A DNA stretch of 64,000 nt from Oxalobacter formigenes (lineage in GTDB: Bacteria > Pseudomonadota > Gammaproteobacteria > Burkholderiales > Burkholderiaceae_D), in assembly GCA_023667225.1 (NCBI GenBank), contig JAMPAN010000001.1, positions 728,365-792,364 of the forward strand, read 5' to 3'. Shown in pieces: positions 8,217 to 64,000 of this stretch. Under the pieces are notes generated by a model. That model searched no databases, was not told the origin of the DNA, and saw only the letters and a list, made by a program, of their open reading frames with translations. The number at the start of each line of letters is the position of its first letter. The stretch's first letter is position 1. The translations under genes and the position numbers were made by a program.

Positions 8217-11200
8217 CTAATGCAGGGAAAAATCCGCCCGCGCACCGTCTCCGCCATCCCGGCGCCTGCTGGCATGGATGAAAATACGCGCATCGGGAAT
8301 GCCTCCCTGCTCAATCAGCCACGCCTTCGCCACGGCTGCCCGCCTGTCAGCCAGCCGCAGGAACGCCTCCTCCTGTACCGGATAATGCTTGACAAGCAGT
8401 TTTTCCATCTCGGCAACCGGCAGCGACTTTTGAAACCCGATCAGATTGCGCGGCTTTTTGAAATCTGCCTCGCTGTAAACCGCCTTAAGCAGCTTCGCAT
8501 ATTCTTCTGTGCTGACAGTGACTTCGCTCAAACGCCTATTTTCACCCGCCTGCCCCATCTCCCTGCGTTTCTGTTCGCGCACCTTCCGGTCTATCGACAC
8601 CCTGGCCAGGCCTTCCCTGTCAATCTCCGGGTCATAACACCCCGTCACTTCAAGCTTCAGTCCCGGCCGGTTCTTCAGCGCTTTGGAAAGAGTTTCCAGT
8701 TTTTCCTTCTCTTTTTCCGTCACCTCTGCATAGCCTGGCGCAAATGCTATCCAGGAAAGTTCTTCCCCGCCACCAAAGGCTGAAGCAAGCAGGGAAAAAG
8801 GCGCCGTCACCGCTTTTTTCAGCAAATTGACCACCACGCGGAAAACAATACCGCCAACGGAAAAATCCGGATCGCTCAATGAACCTGAAACCGGCAGATT
8901 CACATCAATCACCCCGTCCCCGTCTTTCAACAAATTGACAGCCAGCTCAACCGGCAGGCCGATAACCGGATCACCCTCGCTTTTCGGGCCAAAAGTCAAT
9001 TGATCCAGGACAAGGCGGTTTTCCGCACTCAACTCCCCGTTTTCTACCTTGTACTGCACATCAAAAGAAAGCTTGCCCTTTTCAATGCCGTGGCCGACAT
9101 ACTTGCTGGTATAAGAGCTGAACTGCGCCAGCTCCATCCCTTTGACCGCCCCTTTCAAGTCCAGGGACAACGCCGGATTAAACGGATTCACGCTCCCCGT
9201 TACCGTCAGGGGTGCGCGATTAACCTGTCCCTTTATGCTCACCGCTGCCGCGCTCCGGCTGTCGCTGGAAATCCGGCTGATAACGCCCTGAACCCGGTCC
9301 ATATCGGCCGTATAGTTCGGCTTGATAAAATTGTCGGTAAAACGGATGCGGCCGTGATTTAACCGGAAACGGTCAATCCGGATTGGCGGCAGCCCTGCCT
9401 CCGGCTGCGGCGCGGCCGCCAAAACCGCCTCCCCCTGTTCTGGCCTTTCCTGCGGCGGCAAAACCGTTTTTCCCTCAGAAGCATCTGCCAATGAAACAGC
9501 GGTAACGCCCGCTTCTTCTGCCGTTTCAACAGGCGCTTCGCTGTCAGTCAGGCTTTTTTTGCCGCCAGCCTCGCTTCGCAGAATATTTTGCACATTCAAA
9601 CGACCGTCTGCCCCCAGTATCAGGCGGGCAAAAAACTGGTCAAGATCAGCCTGCCGGGCCGTCAGGGAAAATGGAGAAAACTGCACATGCATTTGTCTTA
9701 AGGCAAAGGTTTTCCAGCGGACAAACGAATCGCCCCGGATCTGGTCAAGCGTCACCAGATTATCCAGGCTCACATCCCCCTTGTATTCGCCCCGAAACGC
9801 CCCCTTCTTCCCGGCCGAAAGCGACAGATGCCCTTTTGTAGAAACATCCGCCTGGCGAAGAGTCAGGTTCACCCGGGTATCAATATACTGCTGAAGCGCC
9901 ACCAGGCTGACATGCTGCAAATCCACATCCAGATCGGCAAAAAGAGGGGCTGCGCCAAACCGGCCTTCTACCCGCACAGCCCCTTTCTTCTCGACATTTG
10001 CCATCACCTTGAGTGCGCTTATCTGGCCCGGCTCGGTCGAAATATCCCGGATATGGGCAGTTAACCCTGTGAAACTGCCGCCCATCGGCTGCTTCAGGTT
10101 CCTGTTTTGCATATGCACAGACCAGCCGCCAATATCAATTTCACCGATATGCACGCCAAAGCCAGGCTCGCCGGAAGCCGCCGCCTGCCGGGAAAACACC
10201 GGCGCATGACCGCGCTGTTGCCGTTTTTCCAGCGCCATTTCCAGCACCGCATGGTCGGAGGCAATCCTGCCGATACGAACAGATTGCCCACCGATATCCA
10301 CCGCCGTCTCATCCACAACAAGATTCAAACCATTTGCCATGACGGTACAGGGCATCCCGGCCGCATAGTCAGTATAGCGAAGCCTCCCGTCTTTCACGGC
10401 AAATTGCCCGACAGCCAGCTTCATTGGCGTCTTGTCCTGCGCTTCCTTTCCTGCATCCGGCTTTCTCTGCCCGGCTGTTTTTTTAGTCTCCGGTGCCAAT
10501 GCCAGCAAATTCAGCACACCCGAAGCACTGTTTTCGGCATAGACCTCCGGGCGAACCAGCGTTATCTGACCAAGCCGGAAATCCCCGGCAAAAATCGCGC
10601 TCTTTTCCAGCGTAACGGCCAGTTTATCCAGCATCAGCATCGGCTTCTTCGCCAAGTCGGTCAGCCGCAGGCCATCCAGTTCAACCGCACCGCTCACATC
10701 CAGCTCCGGCAGCCGTCCCTCATGCTGGATAAAATGCAGCTTCAAATCAAAACTGAGGTTGCCTCCGGCAAGATGAAAAGCCGGCTTGTATGGCAAATAA
10801 GCCACATATTGCGGCAGAGCAATATCTTTCAGCGCCAGGTCAAACACCGTCTCCTTGTCTTCCGCAAAAGGCCGGGTCTTGCCCGACAATTCCATCCGTG
10901 TGCCGTTTATCTGCGCGCTCAGGTATGGCTCGATAAAAGTCTCGACACGGGAAGGGCTGGAAGAAACAGCAGGAATACGGATGCGGATATCCTCTATGCG
11001 ATGCTGCGCCTTCATGGGATGGTCATCAAAAACAATCACGCCGCCATCCACCTGGATATTGTTGACCGAATAGGAAAGCGGCCTGCTGTCCGGTTCGGCA
11101 GGCTGCATGGCCATATCAATCAAATCGCTGATATTGTAGGCATAGCCCGTGGTACGCGAAAGATGGATATAAGGATTCACCAGTTCCACCTCCCGGATAA

Positions 11201-11616: not shown

Positions 11617-14600
11617 CTATTTCTGGATAGCAAAATCTACCCGTGCCGCTGTTTCACCGTTTTCGCCTGATTCGCCCACCTTGCTGGCAAGAATAAAAAT
11701 GCGGGAATCCGCAACCTTCCCTTTTTCAACCAGCCATGCCTTGACCTGCTCTGCGCGCTGGTAAGCCAGCGCCAGGAACTCTTCCTCCGTTGCCTGGTAA
11801 TATTTTTCCATCAGCGCTTCCATTTCGGGAACCGTCAGTTTTTTCTGCATACCGATGAGGTTGCGCGGCTTTTTGATATCCGCTTCCTCATATACCCGCT
11901 CCAGCAATCCTGGGTATTCGCTGTCCTCTACCGTCAGCCGGTTTATCGTAACAGACTGTCCTTTTTCCTGGAGATCCTGGCGCTTGAGCATACGCACCTT
12001 GCGCTTAATCACCGCTTTGGCCAGTCCGGCACGGTCTGCCGAAGAATCATACAGCCCGGTAATATCCAGCTTCAGCTCCGGCCTTGAGGCAAACGCCTTG
12101 GCCAGCGCCTCCAGTTTGGGCGTTTCCTTGTCGGGAATCACCGCGCTGCCCGGCTCAAAATCCAGCCAGGCCATCTCGGCTCCCTTGCCAAACTCAATGG
12201 AAAGAAACGCAAACGGCGAAAGAATAACCCGCTTTAACGAACTCAGGAAAACCTGGGAAAGAATACCGCCGATAGAAAAACTCGGATCATCCAGCGAACC
12301 GCCGACAGGAAGATTAATATCAATCACGCCGTTACTGTCCTTAAGCAAAGAGACCGCCAGCTCGACAGGCAGGCTGGTGACCGGCTCGCCCGGCGCTTTC
12401 TCGCCAAACGTCAGCTGATCCAGTATCAGCCTGTTTTGCGCAACCAGAACGCCATCCTCAATCTTATATGTTACATCAAACGAAAGCTTGCCCTTGTCAA
12501 TGCCATAGCCGAGATACCGCGTCGTATAGGAGCTGAACTGGGCCAGCTCCATCCCGCGGACCTGCGCCTCGACATCCAGCGCAAGATGCTCCTTAAGCGG
12601 GCTGATTGTACCGGCCGCCACCAGCGGCGCATGATTGACCTGCCCGCGAAGATCAAGCCTCGCCACCGCATCGGGATCAGAGGAAAAACCGGTAACAGTC
12701 CCCTCCATTTCCGTGATATTGGCAGTGTAATTCGGCTTGATAAAATTATCAGTAAACCTGACGCGGCCTTTCTTCAGGGTCAACTTGTTTACCGTTACCA
12801 GCGGCAGCCCGGCCTGGCCTGATACGGCAGCACCCGGACTGACAGGCCGGGTTGTCACATTCCCCTTGTCACCTGAACGGGATTGCCGCCCGTCCCCTGC
12901 CGCAGCCAGGTCGTCCAGCTCATTCTCCGTTTCCGTCAGGCTGGTTTGCCCGCCTGCCCGGCTTCTCAGGATATTGCGCAAATTCAGCCTGCCATCCGGA
13001 TTGAGGATCACCCGTGCAAAAAAGCGGTTCAGCTCTGCCTCCCCAATCCGGACAGAAAGCGGCGCCACATTGGCATCAACCTCCTTTAACGCCAGCGTAT
13101 TCCACCGGACAAACGTATCCTTATTGACCTGGTCAACTGTATGCAGCCGCGACAAAGCCGCTTCCCCCTTGTAGCCGCCCTCCAGCCCGCCTGCCGGAGT
13201 GGCTTTCAGGCGAACCTGCCCTGCCAGGGACAAATCCGCACGGTTCATGGTCAGGTTGACATAATCATCAATATACGGCTGGATGGCGACAAGGCTCACC
13301 TCCTTTACATCAAGCGCCATATCCACATCCAGCGGCGAAAACCCCGCTTTCCCGTCTGCCGCCAGTTTGCCCGTCTTGTTCACCGTCGCCCGCACAGAAA
13401 GCCTGGCGGGCGAACCGGAAGGGAACGACACCTCCTGCGCTGTCAATCCCAAATCCGTTACCGAAACACCCAGCGATTTTTCCAGATTGGTATTGCGTCC
13501 CTTCAGGGTCCAGCCCGCCAGAACCAGCTTGCCGATATGAACGGCATAAGGCGGCGCCTGCGGCATCACCACAGGGCTGCTATCCGCTGCCGTCTTTTTT
13601 CCAGCTGTTTTTTCGTGCTTCTCAATCTGCCCGGCCAGCACCCCGTTTTTGGAAGCAATCTCGCCTACCGCAATACTCCGTTTTTCCGTATCAAGCCGGA
13701 TATCAGATGCCGTCAGGTTTACCCGGCTTGCGTAACCCGAAACCGGCATACCGGCAATATCCGTTGTATTCCGGTTCTTCAGGCGCGCCGTCCAGTCCGA
13801 TACGGCAACCTTGCCGATATTCACGGCAAACCCTTCGGCAGGCTGCGCCTTTTGCGCTTCCATCACTGAAGCCAGCAGCCCTGCCCGCGCAGCGGCGCGT
13901 TTTCCCCTGGAAGAAGGCTTGTCAGGGTAAGGTTCCAGCTCAATTTCGGCCTCCCCTCCCGCAGAGCGGATGGCGGCAACCGAAACCGCCTTGTCTTTCA
14001 GGCGGATATCCGCATCGTCAACCGTCACCCCCATGCGGGCAAACGTTGCGGAAAAAGGCGTTTCAAAAGGATCAAGGCGATTGCTGTTTTTGACCTTGCC
14101 AGACCAGCCGGCCACTTCCAGCCTGCCCGTCCGGATATGATAGGGCGAACCGGCCTTGCCAGCGGCGGCAGAACCGTAAGACACAACCGGCGGACAGTTT
14201 TCCATCAGCACATCAAAACGGCCGCCGGCAGAACGGATATACGCCGCGCTGGCTTCCTGCTTCTTCATATCAACCAGCGCCTTCTCCACTTTCAGTCCAA
14301 ACTGGCTGACCGCCGCCGAAACCGGCAGCCCCGCCGCCTCCCGGTTACGGTTTGTCAGGCGGGCAGACCAGCCGGCAATTCCCACCTTGCCAATACTGAT
14401 TTCAAAAGCCCCTGTTCCCGCTGCCTTAACCGGCGCAGACAGTTTCCCGGCAGGATGATCCTCAAGAGTCACATCAAAGGAAGCGCCGGATGACTGCACC
14501 TCCCCCACTGAAACCTTTTCCGCCGCCGGATCAAGCGAAACCTCCTCAACAACCATCCCAAAACGGTTGATTGATGCCGAAAACGGCTGGGCGGCCATCT

Positions 14601-28753: not shown

Positions 28754-30625
28754 TTAATCTGTCGGATTGACTTCCACCGGGCCTTCACGCTTGATTGATT
28801 TCAATGCATTAAAAACGTCTTTCAATTTAATATTTTTTTGTTTCTGCTGTTGCCTTTCCTGCTTCTGCAACCGGCGTTGCTGTTCCTGCTCCTTCAACTG
28901 GCGCTGCTGTTCCTGTTCCTTCAACCGGCGCTGCCGTTCCTGCTCATTCAACTGCTGTTGCTGTTCCTGGCTTTCCGCATCCACTTCCTGCACCTCATTT
29001 GTTTGCGGCACGACAGGGAGATCAGATTGAATGTTGCTGCGCATATTGGTTTCAATACCAATGTCGCCTTCATCGATAGACATGGAATAAGCAATGTTAT
29101 AAGACATGAATTTTTTACCTGAATCACCAGAAAGTACGCTTGCAACCCCTGTGCACTTAAATTCGGGGCCGCCCATACTGTCCGCAGTTTCCTGTGCTTG
29201 GATAGTAAAACGCCACTTTCCTCGATATCCTTTTGAGATCAGTTCATTATTAATAAAATCTTTTTCCTTTTCAAAAACTCCTTTCATTACTCTATTTTCA
29301 ACACAGTAATTAACCTGCTGATTTGCCGTTTGTTGTTGTTTTTTCACTACCGTTGTCTGAGTGTGTTGCGTTTTGGCATTTTCACTCTGCGATAGGTCTC
29401 TAAAAATATCCGGCAAAGATGCTGTAACCAAGAAAAAAAAGATAGATAAAACAGGCAAAACAATTTTATCGTACTCAGTCTTCGCTAAAAATGGCTTTTC
29501 AACAGGTTGAAAAGCTTGCGCATAAGCCTGTTTTTCTCCATCACTTAATGACTCGATTGATGAAACAAATGCTTTTTTCTGATTAAGAAAAGACTTCCTT
29601 ATACTTTTGGAATAATCCAGTATAAAATTCCGTCTTAAAAACGCATACCCCAGAGCTAATAAGAGACCAAGTATACTCCATAAATCCCGTAAGGCAAAAC
29701 CTCCTTTACTGCCAATTCCCCATACCAGAAGCAAAGCGCAAAAAGAGGCCAGCGTTGGAATAAAACCCAGGTAAACATTACGTTCCCTGTTTGAATCTAC
29801 TGGCAGTTTATCAGCTACGATATTGCCATTACCTATTCCATCACACCAATAAGAGTAGTTATTTCCTTTATAATCAAAGACAGCATTACAAATAGGAACA
29901 AAAAGAGTTCCTGTTGATGACTCAATATGTGATAAAGTCCAGTGCCAATCTCTTTGGCGATCTCCCTGCGCATGTTGTTTAACATTGTGATCAATATTTT
30001 CGTTAATTTCTTCACTTAACGAATCAAAAGCCAGTTTTTCCGGAATCGCAAAACTTTCCGCCGTAACCCCTTGCATGAAATCAGGATTAAATGCAGTTCG
30101 TTCAGCGTTGGCAATAATAGATGGAATCATTTCTGCCGGAGTGAGCGTTAGGGAAGTCAAATCAGTACCGGCATAGATAGATACTTCAAAAGTATTGGCA
30201 TCCGTACCATTAACGGGCCGCCAGTCTGTTACCGTACGGTATGCTGTATAGGCCTGACGGCGGCCATTAACTGTTTTATAATCGGTATAAGGCTCTTTCC
30301 TGTCATATCCAAATGAAGCTGTCCATTCTGCCTGATAATCAATTTTAAACAGGTAGGCGGGAACATAAAAACGTTCTCTTTTGAGAAAAGTGGCGGATTG
30401 AATAATGTCGTCCGGCGCATAATTATCTTCTGCTAAAAAGGTATAAACCTGATTTTCAAGGTCTTTTTGATTAGTTGATAAAGGAATTATCAAATCTACT
30501 TCCGTTGGAAGTTCATCCTCTGGCCGCTTAATTTCATTTAACGTATTGCAATAAGGACAAATCAGTGATTGACTGCCAGGCTGATATTCAATTTCCGCGC
30601 CACAGTTTTTACATTGTTCAGACAT
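28754..30625 (-). CDS. Hypothetical membrane protein with an N-terminal zinc ribbon, central TM helices and a C-terminal Q/E/R-rich coiled coil (623 aa), encoded on a low-GC island
   Basis: CKNCGAEIEYQPGSQSLICPYCN zinc ribbon at residues 5-27. Three or more hydrophobic helices at about residues 290-410. C-terminal EQEQQRQLK nonapeptide repeats. ATG at 30625 with a GAGGAAGAG RBS. Local GC about 40%, versus about 60% in the flanks. Confidence 0.7.
   Translation of the reverse strand: MSEQCKNCGAEIEYQPGSQSLICPYCNTLNEIKRPEDELPTEVDLIIPLSTNQKDLENQVYTFLAEDNYAPDDIIQSATFLKRERFYVPAYLFKIDYQAEWTASFGYDRKEPYTDYKTVNGRRQAYTAYRTVTDWRPVNGTDANTFEVSIYAGTDLTSLTLTPAEMIPSIIANAERTAFNPDFMQGVTAESFAIPEKLAFDSLSEEINENIDHNVKQHAQGDRQRDWHWTLSHIESSTGTLFVPICNAVFDYKGNNYSYWCDGIGNGNIVADKLPVDSNRERNVYLGFIPTLASFCALLLVWGIGSKGGFALRDLWSILGLLLALGYAFLRRNFILDYSKSIRKSFLNQKKAFVSSIESLSDGEKQAYAQAFQPVEKPFLAKTEYDKIVLPVLSIFFFLVTASLPDIFRDLSQSENAKTQHTQTTVVKKQQQTANQQVNYCVENRVMKGVFEKEKDFINNELISKGYRGKWRFTIQAQETADSMGGPEFKCTGVASVLSGDSGKKFMSYNIAYSMSIDEGDIGIETNMRSNIQSDLPVVPQTNEVQEVDAESQEQQQQLNEQERQRRLKEQEQQRQLKEQEQQRRLQKQERQQQKQKNIKLKDVFNALKSIKREGPVEVNPTD
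28862..28969. repeat. 4 x 27-bp in-frame tandem repeat inside the 623-aa gene
   Basis: Units cttctgcaaccggcgttgctgttcctg / ctccttcaactggcgctgctgttcctg / ttccttcaaccggcgctgccgttcctg / ctcattcaactgctgttgctgttcctg. They encode the coiled-coil nonapeptide repeats (EQEQQRQLK). Confidence 0.8.
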
Positions 30626-30648
30626 CTCTTCCTCATTGGTTGTTATTA

Positions 30649-31329
30649 TCAGGCTTTATTTCTGGCAGAATGCAAAAACACTTCTCTTTTTGCCAAAAGT
30701 ATGTCAATTTGTTTTATTTGATTTTCTATGGAATTTTCAGGATCTTGGGAAAGTTGTGAGCCAAGTGCCTGAATGGCTTGTTCTATATCATGATCATGAG
30801 GTGTGCCTCCCTGAATATCGCTGGCAAGATAGCGGAATTTTTCAGAGAGTGAATCCAGAATACGTGCGTTTTTCGCTGAGGCGGTGGCGCGAATAACCTG
30901 GATATTATTCCCCCATTTGATGTGCAAACTGGGAGGCGCACTTACCTTAACTTGGCTGACTACGCGCATGGATGCGCGTAGTGACAACAAGCCAATCAGA
31001 AAAGTGCCAACTGTAAAAACATCCAGAGCCATAGCAAGCTTATTGAAGTTCGTTAAAGAAAGTACAACGGATCCAGTAGAGAGAATTAGCATAAAACCAG
31101 CTATAACACTGGCAGGGCCAATAGCAGCAAAGGTTGCCGTGTTGTTCGATTCATTGCTTCTGATAAAACTTGGCGCAAGAAAAAGAAAGGAAACAGCCAA
31201 TACAAAAACTGCTATCGAGATAATAGTGGCAGTTGTCCAGGCTTGTTCCGGAATCAGAATGTAGGAGATAACGACAACAATAAAACTGGCAATTAAGGCG
31301 CAAATATTGAATATGCCGAAAGTACGCAT
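30649..31329 (-). CDS. Hypothetical 4-TM membrane protein (226 aa) in the SPFH operon
   Basis: Four hydrophobic helices in the first about 120 aa, then a soluble C-terminal domain. ATG at 31329 with an AAGGA RBS. 14-nt gap to the upstream gene and 23-nt gap to the downstream gene. Confidence 0.65.
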   Translation of the reverse strand: MRTFGIFNICALIASFIVVVISYILIPEQAWTTATIISIAVFVLAVSFLFLAPSFIRSNESNNTATFAAIGPASVIAGFMLILSTGSVVLSLTNFNKLAMALDVFTVGTFLIGLLSLRASMRVVSQVKVSAPPSLHIKWGNNIQVIRATASAKNARILDSLSEKFRYLASDIQGGTPHDHDIEQAIQALGSQLSQDPENSIENQIKQIDILLAKREVFLHSARNKA

Positions 31330-31343
31330 GGTTTTTCCTTGAA

Positions 31344-54611: not shown

Positions 54612-55664
54612 ATGCAGCTCGGCCCCTATACGCTTCCCAACAACGTCTTCCTGGCCCCTATGGCCGGCATAACCGACCAGCCGTTCAGGCAGCTTTGCCG
54701 GCAGCTTGGAGCAGGATACGCCGTCTCCGAAATGGTCGCGGCCAACCCGCAGCTCTGGCAAACCCCAAAAAGCCAAAAACGCATAGCCGGCGGGGCTGAA
54801 CCGGCTCCCCGCGCCGTCCAGATCACCGGGGCCGATCCGGCCGTCATGGCAGATTGCGCCCGCTACAATATAGACTTGGGCGCCCAGATCATCGACATCA
54901 ACATGGGCTGCCCGGTCAAAAAAGTCTGCAACAACTGGTGCGGTTCGGCGCTGCTGCGGGATGAAAAACGCGTGGCGGCCATCCTGGAAGCCGTCGTCAA
55001 GGCTGTTAATGTTCCCGTCACCCTCAAATACCGCACCGGCTGGAACAGGGAAAACAAAAACGCCCTGGCCATTGCCAAAATCGCCGAAGCTGCCGGTATC
55101 GCCATGCTTACCCTGCATGGGCGCACACGGGAAGACGCCTATGGCGGAAAAGCGGAATATGAAACCATTGCACAGGTAAAAGACCAGGTCGCCATTCCGG
55201 TGGTTGCCAACGGCGATATTGATTCGCCCGAAAAAGCGCGGCAAGTGCTGGCGGCAACACAAGCAGACGCCGTCATGGTTGGCCGGGCGGCACAGGGAAA
55301 GCCGTGGCTGTTTCAGGCCATCACCCATTACCTCGAAACAGGCAGCCTGCTGCCAAACCCGGCAATAGCGGAAATCCGCCGGTGGGTTCTGGGCCACCTC
55401 CAGGAACATTACACTTTTTACGGTGAAATAATCGGCGTACGCAGTGCCAGAAAGCACATAGGATGGTATATTAATGGACTGCCCGGTGCAGAAACATGCG
55501 GTGCGCAGATTAACCGGATTGATTCCTGTGAAGAGCAGCTTGCGCATGTTGACGCTTTTTTCGCATCCCTGATGAAACACGAAAAAAACAAGGCTGCGCC
55601 ATCTGGCGCTGCAACCGTGCATCAGCAGCCCGATACCATAATAACCGCCGCTTGCAGAAAATGA
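54612..55664 (+). CDS. dusB: tRNA-dihydrouridine synthase B
   Basis: Dus TIM-barrel (LAPMAGITD, NMGCP). Followed by fis with an ATGA overlap. Confidence 0.85.
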   Translation: MQLGPYTLPNNVFLAPMAGITDQPFRQLCRQLGAGYAVSEMVAANPQLWQTPKSQKRIAGGAEPAPRAVQITGADPAVMADCARYNIDLGAQIIDINMGCPVKKVCNNWCGSALLRDEKRVAAILEAVVKAVNVPVTLKYRTGWNRENKNALAIAKIAEAAGIAMLTLHGRTREDAYGGKAEYETIAQVKDQVAIPVVANGDIDSPEKARQVLAATQADAVMVGRAAQGKPWLFQAITHYLETGSLLPNPAIAEIRRWVLGHLQEHYTFYGEIIGVRSARKHIGWYINGLPGAETCGAQINRIDSCEEQLAHVDAFFASLMKHEKNKAAPSGAATVHQQPDTIITAACRK

Positions 55665-55894
55665 GCAAAGAACGCATCCAGGAAGTCATTTCCCAAAGCC
55701 TGCATGACTACTTCAACATGCTGGACGGGCAAAAACCGGCCGGCATCTACGAAATGGTCATGCGCACAGTTGAAAAACCGGTTCTGGCCGCCGTCATGGC
55801 CCATGCCGGAAACAATCAGTCCCTGGCTGCGGAAATGCTGGGAATCAACCGCAATACCCTGCGTAAAAAACTGCTTGAACATAAGCTGCTGTAA
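55661..55894 (+). CDS. fis: DNA-binding protein Fis
   Basis: The C-terminal [24 protein letters not shown] aligns with E. coli Fis. 77 aa from the ATG at 55661. Confidence 0.85.
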
Positions 55895-55947
55895 ACTGCC
55901 GCTTTGCTTGCGCCTTTTTCTCTTTATCTGCAAAACCTGAACTGAAC

Positions 55948-57513
55948 ATGAGCCGATTCGCCCTGATCTCCGTTTCTGATAAAACCGGCATTGCCGGGTT
56001 TGCCCGTGCGCTTGCCGACATGGGAATAACCATCCTTTCAACCGGCGGCACAGCCGGGCTGTTGCAAAAAAACGGCATCCCCGTTACCGAAGTGGCCAGC
56101 CACACCGGCTTTCCGGAAATGCTGGATGGCCGCATCAAAACCCTGCACCCCAAAATACACGGCGGCATCCTGGCAAGGCGCGACCTTAAAACCCACCTGG
56201 ACGCCCTCTCGCAGCACGGCATTCCCGCCATCGACATGGTTGTTGTCAACCTCTACCCCTTCCGGCAGACCGTTGCCGCGCCAGACTGCACGCTGGAAGA
56301 TGCCATCGAAAACATTGATATCGGCGGTCCCGCCATGCTCCGCTCGGCAGCTAAAAACTGCCGGCATGTCGCCGTAGTCTGCGATCCGGCCGACTATGCA
56401 GGCATAGCGGAAGAAATGCAAAACAACGGCGGCACATTAACGGAAAACCGCCGCTTTGACCTGGCCAGAAAAGCCTTTTTCCACACTGCGCAATACGACA
56501 GCGCCATCGCCAGCTACCTCTCCAGCCTGGGCGAAAACAAAGCGCACGCCTCACGCAGCGCCTATCCCCAAAACCTCAGCCTGCATTTCGAAAAAGTCCA
56601 GGAAATGCGCTATGGCGAAAACCCGCACCAGTCCGCCGCCTTCTACCGTGAACAGGCCGTACCGGCAGGCGCGCTGGCAAGTTATCGCCAGCTTCAGGGC
56701 AAAGCGCTGTCATACAACAACATCAGCGATGCCGATGCGGCATGGGAATGCGTCAAAACCTTCGATGAACCCGCCTGCGTCATCATCAAACACGCCAACC
56801 CCTGCGGCGTTGCCATTGGCAGCAATCTCTGCGAAGCCTATCAAAACGCCTTAAGCACCGATCCGGAAGCCGCCTTTGGCGGCATCATTGCCTTTAACCG
56901 CGAACTGGATAAAGCGGCCGCCGAAGAAGTGGCGAAACTGTTTGTCGAAGTGCTGATTGCACCTGCCTTCTCCCCCGAAGCGCGCGCCGCCCTTTCCGGC
57001 AAGAAAAACGTCCGCCTCCTGGAAATCCCGCCTGGCAAGGCGCTTAACGAATATGAAGTCAAAAGCGTAGGCGGCGGCCTCCTCATCCAGTCGCCCGATG
57101 CCGCCGGCATTGCCGCCTCCGGCCTGGAACCGGTCACCAAAAAAACGCCCTCTGAAAAACAAATGCAGGATATGCTCTTTGCCTGGCGCGTCGTCAAATT
57201 CGTCAAATCCAACGCCATCGTCTTTTGCCGCGGCGGCAAAACCCTCGCCATCGGCGCAGGCCAGACAAGCCGGGTAGATGCCGCCCGCACCGCCGTCATG
57301 AAAGCGCAAAACGCCGGCATATCGCTGTCCGGCGCGGCCGTAGCCTCCGATGCCTTCTTCCCCTTCCGTGATGGGCTGGATATTGTGGCAGATGCCGGGG
57401 CAGCCGCCGTTATCCAGCCGGGCGGCTCCATCCGTGACCAGGAAGTCATCGACGCCGCAAACGGGCGGGGGCTGACTATGGTCTTTACCGCCATACGCCA
57501 TTTCCGGCACTGA
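55948..57513 (+). CDS. purH: Bifunctional AICAR transformylase / IMP cyclohydrolase
   Basis: MGS-like domain ([10 protein letters not shown]) plus AICARFT domain. 521 aa. Confidence 0.9.
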
Positions 57514-57538
57514 CTTTCTGGAAACGGCACGCTGTCCC

Positions 57539-58084
57539 ATGAGAATCTTGGGCATTGATCCGGGACTCAGGATAACCGGCTTCGGCGTCATTGAAAAACA
57601 GGGCGCGCAGCTTTCCTATATAGCCTCCGGCACCGTGCAAACCCCCTCGGATGCCGGCCTGCCAGAACGCCTGAAAATCATCCTCGAAGGCGTAACGGAA
57701 ATCATCCGCACATACCGCCCGGAACAGGCCGCCATCGAAAAAGTATTCGTCAACGTCAATCCGCAATCCACCCTGCTGCTGGGCCAGGCGCGCGGCGCCG
57801 CCATCTGCGCCCTGGTCAACGCCAGCCTGGCCGTCTCGGAATATACTGCCCTGCAAATCAAGCAGGCCGTTGTCGGGCATGGCAAAGCCCAGAAAAAACA
57901 GGTACAGGATATGGTACAGCGCCTCCTTTCCCTGCCCGGCAAGCCCAAAAGCGACCCGGCAGACGCCCTGGGCGCGGCCATCTGCCACGCCAACACCTTC
58001 GATACCCTGCATACCATGCAGAAAGCCGCGTCGCTCGCCCCGGCAAGCGGCTTCCGCATCCGGGGCGGACGCCTCATCCGGTAA
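57539..58084 (+). CDS. ruvC: Crossover junction endodeoxyribonuclease
   Basis: [17 protein letters not shown]-terminus. ruvC-ruvA-ruvB cluster. Confidence 0.9.
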
Positions 58085-58130
58085 GAGATTGTGGTATATA
58101 TAAGCATCTTTTTCACGTTAAAACTTGCAC

Positions 58131-58712
58131 ATGATAGCTCGCATCAGTGGCACCCTGCTCCAGAAAGCCCCGCCCGCCATCCTGGTTGACTGCCAGGGAA
58201 TCGGTTATGAAATCGACGTCTCTATGGGCACCTTCTACAACCTGCCTTCCATTGGCGAAAAAGTCACCCTCTTCACCCATCTGGCCGTCCGGGAAGACGC
58301 CCATCTCCTGTACGGCTTTGGCAGCCAGGAAGAACGGGACCTTTTCCGCCAGCTGATCCGCATCTCCGGCATCGGCGCAAGAACCGCCCTTTCCCTCCTT
58401 TCCGGCATGTCAGTCGCCGAAATGGTTCAGGCCGTCACCCTCCAGGATACTGCCCGCTTCTCGCGCATCCCCGGCATCGGCAAAAAAACAGCCGAGCGCC
58501 TCCTGCTGGAACTCAAGGGCAAACTGGGCGCAGACCTGGAAGGCGCCGGCAGCGCCGCCGCACAGGGCGGCAACATGGCCGACATCCTCAACGCCCTGAT
58601 AGCGCTGGGATACTCCTCGCGGGAAGTCCATACAGTCCTCCGGCAAATCCCGGCAGACAGCACCGTATCAGACGGCATCAAACTGGCGCTCAAATCCCTC
58701 TCAAAAGGATAA
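58131..58712 (+). CDS. ruvA: Holliday junction branch migration complex subunit RuvA
   Basis: MIARISGTL..., HhH motifs ([12 protein letters not shown]). ATG at 58131. Confidence 0.9.
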
Positions 58713-58742
58713 TTCCCCGCGCCAGGACAGGAAAACACCGGC

Positions 58743-59816
58743 ATGAGCATACAAACAGACAACTTCACCGAATCGCGCATCATTGCGCCCGCCCCCGCTT
58801 CCCCCAATGAAGAAGCCATCGAGCGCGCTTTGCGCCCCAAACACCTGGACGAATATGTCGGCCAGCAAAAAACGCGGGAACAGCTGGAAATATTCATCGC
58901 CGCAGCCCGCAAGCGCGGCGAAGCGCTGGACCATACCCTGCTGTTCGGCCCGCCCGGCCTCGGCAAGACCACCCTGGCCCACATCATCGCCAGAGAAATG
59001 GGCGTCAACCTGCGCCAGACCTCCGGGCCGGTGCTGGAAAGGCCCGGCGACCTGGCAGCGCTTTTGACCAACCTGGAAACAAACGACGTCCTCTTCATCG
59101 ACGAAATACACCGCATGTCGCCCGTTGTGGAAGAAATCCTCTATCCCGCGCTCGAAGACTACCAGATAGATATCCTCATCGGCGAAGGCCCTGCCGCCCG
59201 CTCCGTCAAACTGGATCTCCAGCCCTTTACCCTCGTTGGAGCCACCACCCGCGCCGGTATGCTGACCAATCCCCTGCGCGACCGCTTCGGCGTTGTTGCC
59301 CGGCTAGAGTTCTACCATGTGGAAGACCTCACCAAAATCGTCATGCGCAGCGCCGGACTCCTCAATACCCCCATCAGGAAAGACGGCGCAGAAGAAATCG
59401 CCCGGCGCGCACGGGGCACCCCCCGCATTGCCAACCGGCTGCTGCGGCGGGTAAGGGACTATGCCGAAGTCAAGGGAACCGGCGAAATCACCCGCAAAAT
59501 GGCCGGCGATGCCCTGAAAATGCTGGATGTCGATCCGGTCGGCTTCGATGTCATGGACAGGAAACTCCTGGAAGCCATCCTCTTCAAATTCGGCGGCGGG
59601 CCTGTCGGCATCAACAACCTGGCGGCTGCCATCGGCGAAGAAGTCGATACCATCGAAGACGTACTGGAACCCTACCTCATCCAGCAAGGCTACCTGCAGC
59701 GCACCCCGCGCGGCAGAATGGCCACCGCCTCCACCTACCGGCATTTTGGCCTGGCCCGGCCCGCACAGGGGCAAAATGCCGGCCTGTGGGACAACCTGCC
59801 GGAAACCCGGCCATGA
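58743..59816 (+). CDS. ruvB: Holliday junction branch migration complex subunit RuvB
   Basis: AAA+ Walker [10 protein letters not shown], Walker B DEIHR. Confidence 0.9.
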
Positions 59817-60223
59817 ATACAGCAAAAACACCCATTGACGTTGCCGCCGGCATCCTCATCCGCGAAAACGGCGATATCCTGCTCGGACAGCGCCCGGAGG
59901 GAAAACCCTATGCCGGTTACTGGGAATTTCCGGGCGGAAAAGTAGAACCGGGCGAAAGCATCGAAGCCGCATTAAAGCGGGAATTCATCGAAGAACTGGG
60001 CATTGTCATCCTCTCGCAGGAACCCTGGTGCGGCGTGGAATACCGCTACCCCCACGCCCACGTCCGCCTGCACTTCTTCATCAGCCGCCATTGGCAGGGA
60101 AAACCCCAAAGCCGGGAAGGCCAGGCCTTTGCCTGGCAGGGAAAAATCAGCGTAGCACCCTTGCTGCCCGCTGCCATCCCCCTCCTTGCCTGGCTGGATA
60201 GCCTCCGCTTCCCGCCAGCCTGA
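59813..60223 (+). CDS. Nudix hydrolase, MutT-like (8-oxo-dGTP diphosphatase family)
   Basis: Nudix box [26 protein letters not shown] at 59813 overlaps the ruvB stop. Confidence 0.75.
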
Positions 60224-60336
60224 ACCGGCCAAACCTCCCTGCTCCGTTTCTTCCTCCTTTTGCCCTCACGGCAAGCCGAAAACTGCCCCCTGGATATTGC
60301 CGCCGTTCGCCAAATCAGCGATAATGCACAAGCGTT

Positions 60337-60423
60337 GCCGGAGTGGCGAAATTGGTAGACGCACGAGACTCAAAATCTCGCGGGGGCGACCCCGTGCCGG
60401 TTCGATTCCGGCCTCCGGTACCA
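60337..60423 (+). tRNA. tRNA-Leu (anticodon CAA), CCA encoded
   Basis: Hand-folded: acceptor gccggag/ctccggt (G1-U72), anticodon stem cgaga/tctcg with loop ctCAAaa, long variable arm, T-loop GGTTCGATTCC, 3' ACCA. Confidence 0.85.
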
Positions 60424-60426
60424 GAA

Positions 60427-60456
60427 TTCCCTCCTAGTATCCCCCCCAAAAAACTG
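60427..60456. repeat. Left copy of the islet-flanking direct repeat (15-bp exact core ATCCCCCCCAAAAAA at 60439-60453)
   Basis: Compared by eye with 63781-63811: 9 of 11 matches in the upstream arm and an identical 15-bp core. Confidence 0.5.
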
Positions 60457-60470
60457 TCCGCGTAGAAAAA

Positions 60471-60842
60471 ATGAAGAGATTAATAACTCCTCTATTGCTT
60501 CCTCTTATAACAACGGCTTGTGTTCATTCAACACCTATGCCGGTACAAGTCTCTCAACCGGGCGATGCCATAATGTCCTGTGAAAGTATCCAGGAAGAAA
60601 TGAGCAAAATGCAAAATAAAGTAGCAGAAAGCGATAGCGAACATAATAACCAAGTAGCAAAAAATGTTGGACTCGGCGTAGCCGGTGCATTACTTATAGT
60701 TCCATGGTTTTTTATGGATACAAGCGATGCTAATACTATTGAGGCAAAAGCTGCTAAAGAAAGATATCTAAAATTGGGTACAATGTGGCGTGATAAAGGA
60801 TGTGATCAAGAAGCCGCGAATAAAATCACCTCTGCAAAGTAA
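60471..60842 (+). CDS. Putative small lipoprotein (123 aa) encoded in the AT-rich islet
   Basis: Signal peptide MKRLITPLLLPLITTAC with a lipobox-like TTAC. AT-rich codon usage. ATG at 60471. Confidence 0.55.
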   Translation: MKRLITPLLLPLITTACVHSTPMPVQVSQPGDAIMSCESIQEEMSKMQNKVAESDSEHNNQVAKNVGLGVAGALLIVPWFFMDTSDANTIEAKAAKERYLKLGTMWRDKGCDQEAANKITSAK

Positions 60843-61451
60843 TGGCATACTGATTTATATAGAATTCATATCGAGTAATATTCATTCAAGCAACTTAAGA
60901 TAAACTACATCTTTAATTATTCCACATACAATATTAATCAATATAGCCTTTTATTCCTTTTTTGTTTCTGCTCTCACATACTATGTCGTCTAGTATTGCC
61001 TTATTTCAAATTATTCAGGTACCATCTATCTAAATAGACACCACAGTAGAACAAAGGCATTATAATTCAATAGCCTATTATTCAAAAAGGGGCGACAGGC
61101 AAAAATTTCCTTCTAAAAACGCTCCGCACAATAAAAATAAATCAACTCATAAAGATAAAAAGAACCATCTTTAACCTATCTTTTTTGAAAAATTCTTTAT
61201 TTATAGAATAAAATTGCCGACGTATTCTATAATACCCTATCAATAATTTATCGCCACCACATCACAAAAGACCAAGGCAGCGAATGAAAAATAAAATTAT
61301 CTATGGTTTCATTAAGTTTTTTCAATAATGAATCATTCACCAATCAATTTAATAAAAGGTCACCTACACCTGCAAAGACTCTCCTACTTCCGAAAAAATA
61401 GAAACTGAAATAGATAAACCTGATACAACAAGGGGAGATAGAGGGAAAGGT

Positions 61452-61763
61452 ATGTTAGTTCTTAAGAAATCCGAAATAAGTGTCATGCGCATACAATCTC
61501 CGGGATTTGAAGAAATCTTTATAAAAAAAGAAGACTTGGCCGATGATATGTATATGTCCTGCAACCATATCGACCACCTGCACTTATTCTGCATGCACAC
61601 TGTGTATATAGAACGCGGATTAACCTTGAAAGAAGCCAGCAAAGCTTTAAAACTGCCCCCAAAATTTCACTTTTGGAGAACATGCTGTTTTTGTGCGATC
61701 AGAACTTTTTTTAAAGAAATTGGAAACCACATTAAAAAAGAAGAAGCTAAAACACGAAAGTAG
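61452..61763 (+). CDS. Doubtful small ORF or regulator remnant (103 aa)
   Basis: Contains a possible HTH-like stretch RGLTLKEASKALKL. Lies within very AT-rich DNA and is rich in Cys/His/Phe. Could be a decayed gene. Confidence 0.3.
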   Translation: MLVLKKSEISVMRIQSPGFEEIFIKKEDLADDMYMSCNHIDHLHLFCMHTVYIERGLTLKEASKALKLPPKFHFWRTCCFCAIRTFFKEIGNHIKKEEAKTRK

Positions 61764-62284
61764 ATTAGTTGAATATTACAATCCGGATAAACAACAATCC
61801 TTTACATAGAAGGAACTTCCATTCAAAAAAATACAGCTGCCAACGAGAATTTAGGATATGATTAATACAGGAGTTGCAGGAACCGACCCGCTTAAACTTG
61901 ACATTGGAGATATAAACAAATTCTGTATAAAAAATGAAATCCGCTAATCTTACTAATGCAGAGATAAGATTTAAAGACTAACTGCTTCTCTCAAGAACTT
62001 ACTTATAAAGGAAGAACCTTCCGTAAAAAATAGCAATTTCCTTTGAAGAAACGGGCGATATATGCCCTAAAAACAAGGCGGGATATCCTGCGTATGGATG
62101 CCCCATCCGAAAGCTGGTAAAGTAACACTTGGAGCACAAGAATATAGCAAAGTACAATGGGAACATATTGGGATAGGAAAATGCAAACAATAACCTTCCC
62201 CAAAACCACAGGAAAAACAGGCTCCCTACCTGCTAAAATAAACGCAAAAACATCTCGACCACCCATAAAAACAGGAGCCTCCGG

Positions 62285-62920
62285 ATGAAAGTATTACTGT
62301 TTAACGGTTCGCCGCACCCAAACGGCTGCACCTATACCGCCCTTAAAGAAATAGCCAAAACCCTCAAAGAAGAAGGCATTGAATCGGAAATCTGCCAAAT
62401 CGGAACAGGCGCAATCACCCCTTGCCGAGGCTGCTTTGCCTGTTCCAGAATGGGAAGATGCGTTACCAGCGATGACGGCGTCAACAAATTTCTGGAATAT
62501 GCCAAAGACTTTGACGGCTTTATTTTTGGCACCCCCGTCCATTACGCCTCGGCAAGCGGCGGCATCACCGCCTTTCTGGACAGGGTCTTTCTTGTCAATT
62601 CCACAGGCGGCAAAAAAATCTTCGAGCACAAGCCGGGCGCAGCCATTGCCTGCGCAAGACGCGCCGGCACAACGGCAACGCTGGATCAGATCAACAAATA
62701 CTTTGCCATTACGCAAATGCCCATCATTTCAGGCCGCTACTGGAACATGGTGCATGGCAACAATGCAGAAGAAGCCATGCAGGATCTGGAAGGCATGCAA
62801 AACATGAGAATCCTCGCGCGTAATTTCGCCTGGCACCTGAAATGCCGGGAAGCCGCGCAAAAAGCAGGCATAGAAATGCCACGGCAGGAAGAAACCGTCT
62901 GGACAAACTTCATCAGATAA
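62285..62920 (+). CDS. Flavodoxin-like fold NAD(P)H-dependent FMN reductase / iron-sulfur flavoprotein-like
   Basis: MKVLLFNGSPHPNGCTY (FMN-binding P-loop-like), CRGCFAC cysteine motif, FIFGTPVHYASASGG. 211 aa. Confidence 0.75.
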   Translation: MKVLLFNGSPHPNGCTYTALKEIAKTLKEEGIESEICQIGTGAITPCRGCFACSRMGRCVTSDDGVNKFLEYAKDFDGFIFGTPVHYASASGGITAFLDRVFLVNSTGGKKIFEHKPGAAIACARRAGTTATLDQINKYFAITQMPIISGRYWNMVHGNNAEEAMQDLEGMQNMRILARNFAWHLKCREAAQKAGIEMPRQEETVWTNFIR

Positions 62921-63277
62921 AAAAACAGGCAAAACACAGCATTTGCCGGTAAAACGCCTGTAAAAGTATTCAGCCCGCATAGGCAGAGTAAAATGCTGCT
63001 TGCGCAAACCTGCCGCTAATGCACAGGCATTGCCGGAAATACAGTTATCATCAGAAGCTGCCCGAATACCGGGGCAGCTTCCTGCCGGCGGAGAAACCTG
63101 CTTGGATATCACATGCCCCAGCCTTGACAGGCTGTTCCGGAAAACCAGGAGAACAGGCGCCCGTGATAATCCGCACCGTCATGCCCCTGGCAAATCAGGT
63201 ATTCCTGCGAAAATGATTTTTGTCTCATTTTTACGCAATCAATACCCCCTCAAAAAACAGACAGGAGGATAGAAAAA

Positions 63278-63646
63278 ATGGAAAAAGCCGTAAAAATCAT
63301 GGAAAAACTGGCCAGCGGATGCCAGCACGACCTGGATGCCATCAAGACTGCACTCGAAAATAAAGCACACCTGGCCGAATTGGGAATAGATGACGAAAAC
63401 GCGGTAAAACAGGCGCATCATATCGTATGCAAAGCTATCGAGTACTTTGGCGGCGATTTCCCTGCCGCACCTTACTACGCTGTCTGTTCGAAAACAATGG
63501 AAACGATGGGTTTTGACACAAAAAAAGAAGCCGAAGAGTGGTCAAAAGAGATGGAAATTCAATTCCCCTGCGGTTACCGGGACGCCGGAGCGCCGCCTGC
63601 GGCATTCGGATGGGCATTTATCATCAAAAACGCCCTCGGCATGTAG
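63278..63646 (+). CDS. Hypothetical protein (122 aa)
   Basis: Strong RBS CAGGAGGAT seven nt upstream of the ATG. No recognisable motif. Confidence 0.55.
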   Translation: MEKAVKIMEKLASGCQHDLDAIKTALENKAHLAELGIDDENAVKQAHHIVCKAIEYFGGDFPAAPYYAVCSKTMETMGFDTKKEAEEWSKEMEIQFPCGYRDAGAPPAAFGWAFIIKNALGM

Positions 63647-63780
63647 GCTTTCCCCTGCGGAATTCAAAACGCTTCGGGAAGCGCCGGGGCCCCTGCAAAG
63701 GAGCAGGATGAGAGCGAAGCGCCTCAGGCAGCCGGGCAATTTTGCATTCATCATCTTCCGCGCCACGCTATGCAGGTTAC

Positions 63781-63811
63781 TTCCTGCCTGTAAAATCCCC
63801 CCCAAAAAAAC
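63781..63811. repeat. Right copy of the islet-flanking direct repeat (core at 63795-63809)
   Basis: See the left copy. Confidence 0.5.
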
Positions 63812-63870: not shown

Positions 63871-63904
63871 AAAAAAACAAGGGCTTCCGTAAAGGAAGCC
63901 CTTG
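63871..63904. terminator. Rho-independent terminator for the minus-strand gene entering from the right edge
   Basis: Perfect 10-bp stem aagggcttcc/ggaagccctt (63879-63888 and 63894-63903) with loop gtaaa. A7 run at 63871-63877 on the plus strand, a T-run on the minus strand. Confidence 0.6.
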
Positions 63905-63963
63905 CCCAACAGAAAGAGTAAGGGAAGACAAAAACCTCTACCGTCCTGTTGTCAAACCCGCAT

Positions 63964-64000
63964 CAGAACTTGTGGGTCATACCGATCTGGAAGGCCGTAA
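63964..64000 (-). CDS. 3' end of a probable outer-membrane porin gene (C-terminal ...TAFQIGMTHKF-stop)
   Basis: Minus-strand reading frame ends with an aromatic C-terminal Phe before TGA (plus-strand tca at 63964-63966). Followed by a strong terminator. Only 11 codons are visible. Confidence 0.3.

Follow-up and report, generated by a model that had tools for sequence, protein, structure and literature searches.

In Escherichia coli, the gene for the tRNA-Leu with anticodon CAA is leuX, and some phages carry lipoproteins that act in superinfection exclusion, such as Llp of T5 and Cor of phi80 and N15. The pathogenicity island (PAI) II536, which occupies leuX in uropathogenic E. coli, encodes its own P4-like integrase, is excised as a circle and can be re-integrated at leuX with restoration of the tRNA (PMC3202238). 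SieA of phage P22, which takes part in superinfection exclusion, is a polytopic inner-membrane protein (PMC10883804). The present analysis concerns the DNA that follows the tRNA-Leu(CAA) gene of Oxalobacter formigenes in a stretch of 64,000 nucleotides (assembly GCA_023667225.1, contig JAMPAN010000001.1, positions 728,365 to 792,364), hereafter called the window. According to the original prediction, a 3.4-kb AT-rich islet lies next to this tRNA gene, from 60427 to 63811, between the two copies of an imperfect 30-bp direct repeat (copy 1 and copy 2). We find an ordinary decayed insertion whose 3.4-kb boundaries were wrongly drawn: positions 60424-62195 are probably a decayed and immobile remnant of phage type, which lies at a tRNA hot spot beside older accessory genes of the clade. 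As in PAI II536, foreign DNA of deviant composition takes up where a tRNA-Leu gene ends. Unlike PAI II536, it has neither an integrase nor a tRNA-derived repeat and comprises 1.8 kb with a single gene, and is thus a remnant rather than a functional island.

The locus was compared with that of several relatives. These were L081 (GCA_023664065.1), whose ruvB gene is 95% identical in DNA sequence to that of the window, the two gut-metagenome contigs L083 and L084, the Logan contig L082, the O. formigenes-like JGI contig L095 (guanine-plus-cytosine (GC) content 0.48), the JGI contig L096 (JGI994J12354_10067335) and a more distant Oxalobacter (L001 and L097). Most of the loci obtained in a RuvB search of genome contigs were from Massilia, Collimonas and Paraburkholderia and lacked a tRNA gene 3' of ruvB, so that L001 alone was informative, and a literature search for islands of Oxalobacter found nothing specific. 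The blastn homology of the window to L081, L083 and L084 ends at 60423-60426 and restarts at 62196. The DNA in between, a lineage-specific AT-rich segment of 1773 nt (60424-62195), has a GC content of 0.352, compared to 0.589 for positions 55000-60423 and to a mean of 0.547 for the whole window, and the sharp drop that had been described right behind the tRNA gene is thus real. The GC content was also said to recover right after copy 2, but it rises in two steps instead, to about 0.51 from 62196 on and to 0.54 past 63647. The 62196-63811 interval has a GC content of 0.51, including 0.514 for its FMN-reductase-family gene (FMN_red, for flavin mononucleotide reductase) and 0.496 for the orf122 gene. 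Atypical composition together with patchy distribution therefore characterizes 60424-62195, and only weakly 62196-63811, which is present in all close relatives. The contrast is also seen in the GC content at third codon positions (GC3), which is 0.28 for the lipoprotein gene of the segment and 0.74 for ruvB.

Apart from this lipoprotein gene (60471-60842, plus strand), the segment consists of non-coding or decayed DNA (60843-62195, GC 0.336) without any match in Pfam or Rfam. The original prediction was right that such DNA is present, but its extent is 1.35 kb rather than about 1.1 kb. No Pfam match was found for its stop-free segments of at least 45 amino acids. Its one sizeable open reading frame (ORF), 61452-61763 on the plus strand, encodes 103 amino acids and is an orphan that matched only itself among 1.84 billion representative proteins and had no match in Pfam, PADLOC or PHROG. 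Scans of viral contigs with the lipoprotein and with the 103-amino-acid ORF product gave nothing. Nothing else in the 64-kb window resembles the segment, and when the islet was compared by blastn to plasmid and phage collections, only the FMN_red gene was matched, and weakly.

Domain scans of the ORFs of at least 40 amino acids and of the stop-free segments of at least 45 amino acids between 60424 and 63811 revealed no integrase or resolvase domain, and tblastn searches with two integrases, a resolvase and the N-terminus of the L096 integrase described below found no match across the 64 kb, as the original prediction had it. With up to 3 mismatches allowed, the last 18-25 nt of the tRNA gene did not recur in either the window or L081. 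The proposed repeat, as the original prediction stated, leaves out the tRNA 3' end. Ends of the type found in miniature inverted-repeat transposable elements or insertion sequences were searched for, but no inverted repeat pairs 60424 with 62195, and the longest inverted repeats of the region, which match at 72-88%, lie at positions without relation to these ends. As neither an integrase nor a duplication of an attachment (att) site survives, the remnant is considered immobile. The motif TTCCCCAAAACC at the right junction (62197) was examined as a true attR site and rejected, as CCCCAAAA-type words are frequent on this strand and L083 has other DNA between the tRNA gene and the motif. Nine CCCCAAAA words occur in the 64 kb. 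Four of the nine lie inside the 3.4-kb interval, all on the plus strand (60444, 61657, 62198 and 63800), and one of them coincides exactly with the point where the lineage-specific DNA ends on the right (62197, TTCCCCAAAACC).

The tRNA-Leu(CAA) gene, which forms the left edge of the variable site, is intact up to its CCA end (60337-60423, plus strand; ARAGORN; Rfam RF00005, 57.4 bits), and its sequence is 100% identical in L081 and L083. It lies behind ruvA, ruvB and a MutT-type NUDIX gene, and a consensus scan showed a sigma-70-like promoter in front of it (TTGCCG-17-GATAAT, 60297-60325, plus strand) that is conserved in L081, L083, L095, L096 and L001. In these five lineages and the window, the sequence is invariant through the CCA of the tRNA and cannot be aligned from the next base on. 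The DNA inserted behind the tRNA gene measures 1773 nt in the window, 272 nt in L083, 1054 nt in L081 (where it includes a gene of 275 codons), 158 nt in L095, at least 498 nt in L096 and more than 1.2 kb in L001, and no similarity was detectable among these six fillers. In L096 (region 1188-1685), a truncated ORF for a P4-type integrase starts about 190 nt past the orthologous tRNA-Leu(CAA) gene. It opens with MAKVINPLTDTHPRNAKPKEKPYKLADGRGLHLLVSPSGAKYWRMNYRF and matches Arm-DNA-bind_3 with an E value of 2e-10, the gene being broken after about 50 codons. In L095, the tRNA gene is followed by a terminator and then directly by genes for proteins of 123 and 81 amino acids and relA, all three on the minus strand, without any FMN_red block, whereas in L081 the same three genes sit beyond a porin-like gene and a gene for a 260-amino-acid protein.

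Because six lineages diverge exactly at the CCA into unrelated DNA, one of them with a truncated P4-type integrase, the 3' flank of tRNA-Leu(CAA) appears to be a hot spot of integration and turnover in the Oxalobacter-like clade. It resembles the known tRNA-Leu islands in that the N-terminal domain of a P4-type integrase is found at the same tRNA and that the occupants differ by lineage. A decayed islet that has lost its integrase, one of the two possibilities originally put forward, was hence the right kind of explanation. The L095 contig also contains a direct repeat of about 90 nt (1100-1185 and 2400-2490; ...TTCTATTTTGAACCGGCAAC.CAGGCAGACGGGA...GCTGACCCTAA) that brackets the tRNA-Leu(CAA) gene and two small genes and looks like a repetitive extragenic element.

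The other half of the proposed islet has a different history. Homology restarts with the upstream region of the FMN_red gene (62196-62284, plus strand; TTCCCCAAAACCACAGG...CTGCTAAAATA), which is 84.5% identical to L083/L084 by blastn. The gene itself (62285-62920, plus strand) encodes a protein of 211 amino acids with a flavodoxin fold (Pfam FMN_red PF03358, E value 3.7e-29, 101.7 bits for a cut-off of 24). It has a GC3 of 0.59, and orthologues with 87-92% identity are found at the same locus in L081 to L084. The orf122 gene (63278-63646, plus strand) is a clade-restricted orphan with two clusters of homologues (92% and 85%) among 5.8 billion proteins, and its orthologues come after FMN_red in L081, L082 and L083. 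In L081 and in L083/L084, ruvB, the NUDIX gene and tRNA-Leu(CAA) are followed by a short lineage-specific filler, FMN_red, orf122, copy 2 and the terminator of a convergent gene that we take, from its termini only, to be porin-like. In L082, the FMN_red-orf122-terminator block lies behind different genes, with no tRNA gene within 3.6 kb upstream. Copy 1 and the AT-rich segment are present in none of L081, L082 and L083/L084. The DNA identity to the relatives amounts to 90-92% for FMN_red and 92% for orf122, compared to 92% for the NUDIX gene and 95% for ruvB. Given the same order and the backbone-like divergence in the relatives, both genes were probably inherited vertically and present in the common ancestor. 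Of the cargo that had been listed for the islet, the lipoprotein gene is thus lineage-specific, but FMN_red and orf122 are older and conserved across the clade. What the original prediction had named as grounds for its refutation is found for the 3' half of the islet, where the relatives have the same genes at the same locus and no empty site with a single copy of the repeat. No site in which the tRNA gene, one copy of the repeat and the porin-like gene follow each other was seen, and the relatives without copy 1 keep copy 2, FMN_red and orf122.

An alternative is an island that is ancient rather than recent. The whole block behind the tRNA gene, perhaps with the porin-like gene and the 260-amino-acid protein gene, might have entered before the clade diversified and have been remodelled at its tRNA end, the two repeat copies being vestiges of att sites. 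The arrangement of L095, in which the tRNA gene leads directly to the three minus-strand genes that lie past the block in L081, speaks for this explanation, and the GC contents of FMN_red and orf122 (0.50-0.51) are under that of the backbone. Many homologues of FMN_red with about 80% identity are known from gut metagenomes, including one in an Opitutales metagenome-assembled genome (MAG), and TTTCCTGCCTTGACAATCTCC is found 25 nt past the tRNA gene in L001. Moreover, the best local match of copy 1 in L081 is the orthologue of copy 2, with a score reached in 10 of 400 shuffles (p ~0.025). However, neither L083 nor L082 contains a sequence that copy 1 matches significantly. Copy 1 also lies within DNA that only the window lineage has, and it is similar to the leaders of lipoprotein homologues found elsewhere. 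The indel of L095 extends past copy 2 and takes in the porin-like gene, so that copy 2 is not its right edge, and the FMN_red block of L082 has no tRNA gene at the distance examined upstream. We regard an ancient island of this kind as unlikely, although less so than the other alternatives.

The only intact gene of the segment encodes a lipoprotein of 123 amino acids with a lipobox (...ITTAC), two conserved cysteines and a Gly-rich hydrophobic centre, which matches phrog_13472 with an E value of 1.8e-17 over positions 1-112 of the 113 of the profile. Ten residues are invariant in 30 homologues (S36, C37, N65, G69, G72, P78, F80, F81, D83 and C111). The protein is 36% identical to the product of an ORF of E. 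coli Kagunavirus phages, and Rhizobium plasmids were matched as well. In the Kagunavirus phage Golestan, the homologue (gp05) is an accessory gene in the opposite orientation amid head and spanin genes. Among the Burkholderiales, Oxalobacter included, closer homologues with 57-84% identity are encoded at other loci, those of Oxalobacter in AT-rich DNA. In Oxalobacter sp. GCA_051885335.1 (L085), the homologue lies 3' of adk and adjoins the gene of an Mrr nuclease, and in a Herbaspirillum (L086) its neighbours are an Ant-type gene, a resolvase and two integrases. In the Logan contig SRR25485492 (L099), the homologue (5001-5372, 57% identity) is part of a P22-like phage region, with genes for gp7-, gp20- and gp16-like ejection proteins on one side and for ClpP, Mnt/Arc, Ant and a tailspike on the other, a slot that sieA occupies on the P22 map.

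On AT-rich gut contigs (L088 to L094), the homologue is the second gene after a PD-(D/E)XK-like gene. In L088, this gene of 255 codons (31-798; PDDEXK_5, phrog_5018) overlaps the lipoprotein homologue (795-1166) by 4 nt, an arrangement also seen in L089 to L093, and the homologues next to a PDDEXK_5 gene are the closest to the window protein (83-84%). The gene order suggests that the PDDEXK_5 and lipoprotein genes make up an AT-rich cassette, and the window may have retained only the second of the two. Like phage morons, the family is a PHROG and occurs as an oppositely oriented accessory gene among the structural genes of Kagunavirus. Unlike SieA, the window protein is a lipoprotein of 123 amino acids without sequence similarity to SieA, and a role in exclusion is a prediction. 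By analogy with these systems, it might act in superinfection exclusion or have another function in the envelope. PADLOC gave no match for the lipoprotein, the 103-amino-acid ORF product, orf122, the 275-amino-acid protein of L081 or the PDDEXK_5 partner, and the predicted structure of the lipoprotein, a helical hairpin (predicted local distance difference test (pLDDT) 64.7), was too weak for a fold search.

These observations fit a simple course of events. Foreign DNA of phage type would have been integrated at the 3' end of tRNA-Leu(CAA), presumably by an integrase that was lost afterwards. The remnant would have kept one intact gene, the lipoprotein gene of the phage moron family (phrog_13472), while the remaining 1.35 kb decayed. 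As there is no terminator between the tRNA gene and the lipoprotein gene, the latter may be transcribed by read-through from the tRNA promoter. FMN_red and orf122 would be accessory genes inherited vertically since before the four lineages split, and the C run of copy 2 would have grown from 2-3 to 7 in the window lineage. Alternatively, the AT-rich segment could be ancestral to the clade and have been lost or replaced independently in the relatives. Each lineage has a different filler, and presence or absence thus gives no direction. However, this alternative requires at least 3 independent exact replacements and leaves the extreme composition of the segment, with a GC3 far from that of its neighbours and no amelioration, to be explained. 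In addition, the closest homologues of the lipoprotein lie in other contexts, after a PDDEXK_5 gene. We therefore consider an ancestral segment improbable, more so than an ancient island.

One argument for the original 3.4-kb islet is the direct repeat. The exact 15-mer ATCCCCCCCAAAAAA is present, as had been reported, at 60439-60453 and at 63795-63809, and these are its sole occurrences in the 64 kb, even with 2 mismatches allowed. Copy 1 (TTCCCTCCTAGTATCCCCCCCAAAAAAC, 60427-60455, plus strand, C7 at 60441-60447) lies inside the lineage-specific segment, and copy 2 (TTCCTGCCTGTAAAATCCCCCCCAAAAAAAC, 63781-63811, plus strand, C7 at 63797-63803) in conserved intergenic DNA between orf122 and the convergent porin-like gene. 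Under ordinary gap penalties, the local alignment of the two copies is confined to the 15-nt core. Three indels are required to align the arms that would extend it to 30 bp, and 3% of the shuffles of these arms score equally well. In shuffles of the whole window, the best score at most equals that of the core, and since shuffling breaks up homopolymers, the significance of the core is overstated in such comparisons. The orthologues of copy 2 read ...CCTGTAAAATCCAAAAAAACGG in L083, ...AAAATCCCAAAAAAAC in L081 and ...AAAATCCAAAGGAAAAC in L082, that is, they follow the pattern ...GTAAAATCC(C)AAAAAAAC with C2, C3 and C2, respectively, instead of the C7 of the window. No counterpart of copy 1 was found beside the tRNA gene of any relative. 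Because the orthologues of copy 2 carry C2-C3, the exact core must have arisen in the window lineage. At the depth of L095, copy 2 is not an indel boundary either, because the block missing from that contig is larger, extending beyond copy 2 and comprising the porin-like gene. The "direct repeat" thus appears to be a match between two unrelated low-complexity sequences and not an att site.

A single integrative islet from 60427 to 63811, with 30-bp att-like repeats and the lipoprotein, FMN_red and orf122 genes as cargo, either decayed or served by a recombinase in trans, is therefore largely refuted, and we give it very little credence. In its favour, an exact core that is unique in the window and beats shuffles flanks an interval whose overall GC content is under that of the backbone. 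Against it, the interval has two compositions (0.35 and 0.51), the relatives hold FMN_red, orf122 and copy 2 without copy 1 and with backbone-like divergence, the copy-2 orthologues have C2-3 and the arms do not score, and the repeat leaves out the tRNA 3' end, with no recombinase in the 64 kb. What stands of the tRNA-targeted islet is the foreign AT-rich DNA directly behind the tRNA gene, but neither a length of 3.4 kb nor a role of the repeat as att sites is supported. Finally, a chimeric join in the metagenome-assembled genome, for which the 100%-identical proteins P0001 and P0124 annotated on one MAG contig might be quoted, can practically be dismissed, as both flanks are on one contig and syntenic with L081 and L083, the junctions fall at the tRNA end and a promoter region rather than at repeats, and the lipoprotein gene is on the same contig in the NCBI annotation.

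Several points nevertheless weigh against a decayed phage-type remnant beside older genes. All relatives are MAGs or metagenome contigs, and no genome of the same species was part of the comparison. No intact parent element, with the lipoprotein gene and an integrase at tRNA-Leu, was found, and we thus infer the mode of arrival. Members of the lipoprotein family are encoded in ordinary chromosomal surroundings as well, in soil Burkholderiaceae (L100 to L102). The 15-mer is unusual, since the only two runs of at least seven C in the 64 kb are those of the two copies, followed by A6 in copy 1 and A7 in copy 2, and its score within the downstream 3.5 kb was reached by 1 of 500 and 0 of 400 shuffles of the query. 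The match of copy 1 to the copy-2 orthologue of L081 may reflect a faint older relationship between the two copies. The growth of copy 2 from C2-3 to C7, by four or five C's and to the exact run length of copy 1, is large for slippage.

The poly-C tract in front of the lipoprotein gene deserves separate attention. The promoters of the Neisseria genes opc and porA are phase-variable and carry a homopolymeric G/C tract between their -35 and -10 boxes. Rheostat promoters based on simple sequence repeats have been reviewed (PMC4081817). In the window, the C7A6 tract ends 17 nt before the ATG of the lipoprotein gene and the C7 run 23 nt before it. In L099, AGTACCCAAAAAAAATCC is located 14 nt 5' of the ATG of the homologue. 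In L085, a C9 run (ATATC9) is the sole run of at least seven C in a 12-kb locus. This run takes up the 17 nt between the two boxes of the best promoter-like site (TTGACA-17-AATATT, 9912-9940), which is located 61 nt upstream of the ATG of the homologue. The tracts upstream of the homologues at these non-orthologous loci thus measure C7, C9 and C3. As runs of at least seven C are rare at these loci (0.02-0.035 per kb), their presence upstream of two homologues is unlikely to be due to chance. We therefore read the core of copy 1 as a probable part of the leader or promoter of the lipoprotein gene and not as a recombination scar.

It is conceivable, although doubtful, that the poly-C tract is a slippage-driven switch for phase variation that travels with the phage-derived lipoprotein family in Oxalobacter. 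As in phase-variable promoters, the C9 of L085 lies in a 17-nt spacer and the C7 of the window close upstream of the ATG. Unlike in such promoters, the scan of the window revealed no promoter-like site that spans the C7, and the C7 of copy 2 lies between convergent genes, where no switch is possible. If the tract were such a switch, the C7 of copy 2 would be an independent expansion or the result of short-patch conversion from copy 1.

Other features of the region were noted. The intergenic DNA between FMN_red and orf122 contains an indel of about 230 nt (62972-63200), delimited by blastn breakpoints, which the window shares with L083, whereas L081 and L082 lack it. Inside the indel, 33-37 nt of the tRNA-Leu promoter region, starting with the -10 box and running through tRNA position +7, are present in a further copy (63005-63037). 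Its alignment score is 34, compared to 17.9 +/- 2.3 in shuffles, and L083 gives a score of 45. The window has two occurrences of the pattern, where none is expected. A 10-bp hairpin follows it (63054-63081, fold z-score -3.6). This copy might be left over from a rearrangement or have arisen by duplication of the promoter. A fuller tRNA pseudogene was considered and rejected, since there is no significant similarity past +7. The indel appears to be a further trace of past rearrangement at the tRNA-Leu locus.

The intrinsic terminator of the convergent porin-like gene (63875-63907, minus strand; terminator scan), with a 14-bp stem and a T run, is conserved in L081 to L083. The gene, on the minus strand, ends with ...TAFQIGMTHKF* (stop codon at 63963-63965) and runs off the window, and in L081 its product has the signal peptide MKKTLIALAVLGAAAGVA. 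Beyond the position of the window end, the AT-rich region of L081 between the porin-like gene and the gene of the 260-amino-acid protein, a lipoprotein, contains two near-perfect palindromes of about 28 bp (11717-11746 and 11918-11950; ATGTCCGTTAATGCGTATTAACGGACAT and AACATCCGTTAATACGCATTAACGGATGTT) that are operator-like. Iron-sulfur flavoproteins (Isf) carry a compact cysteine motif. Like Isf and the NADPH-dependent FMN reductases, the FMN_red protein combines its domain with such a motif, C46-x2-C49-x2-C52-x5-C58 (CRGCFACSRMGRC), and binding of a [4Fe-4S] cluster is putative. Its best match in the PDB is 7d38, 'Cd1' (E value 1.8e-6), with no close solved structure, and the gene, as set out above, lies outside the islet. 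For orf122, a match to Arm-DNA-bind_4 was rejected, as it covers 19 residues and is below the cut-off and as the predicted structure, unreliable as it is, is all-helical; the AlphaFold model (pLDDT 42) was unusable for a fold search. Elsewhere in the window, a second AT-rich stretch (28754-33917, minus strand, GC 0.38-0.46) adjoins a gene for a rarA/mgsA-type ATPase. It contains four genes in a row, three of them for proteins of 623, 226 and 317 amino acids without a Pfam match and one for a protein of 457 amino acids with an SPFH/Band-7 domain and three zinc ribbons, and may be another acquired cluster.

The main value of the analysis is a correction of annotation, since the locus holds not a mobile 3.4-kb islet with a trans-acting recombinase but a dead remnant of 1.8 kb, a very common type of feature. 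In the Oxalobacter-like gut bacteria, the DNA at tRNA-Leu(CAA) appears to turn over fast, as lineages that have diverged by just 5-8% hold wholly different DNA there. An uncharacterized betaproteobacterial lipoprotein family is now tied to phages, including the sieA slot of a P22-like phage. If the doubtful role of the poly-C tract as a switch were true, a gut commensal would turn a phage-type envelope lipoprotein on and off stochastically, maybe for superinfection exclusion, and the tract would be a lead on homopolymer-based phase variation in a genus known for the degradation of oxalate in the gut.

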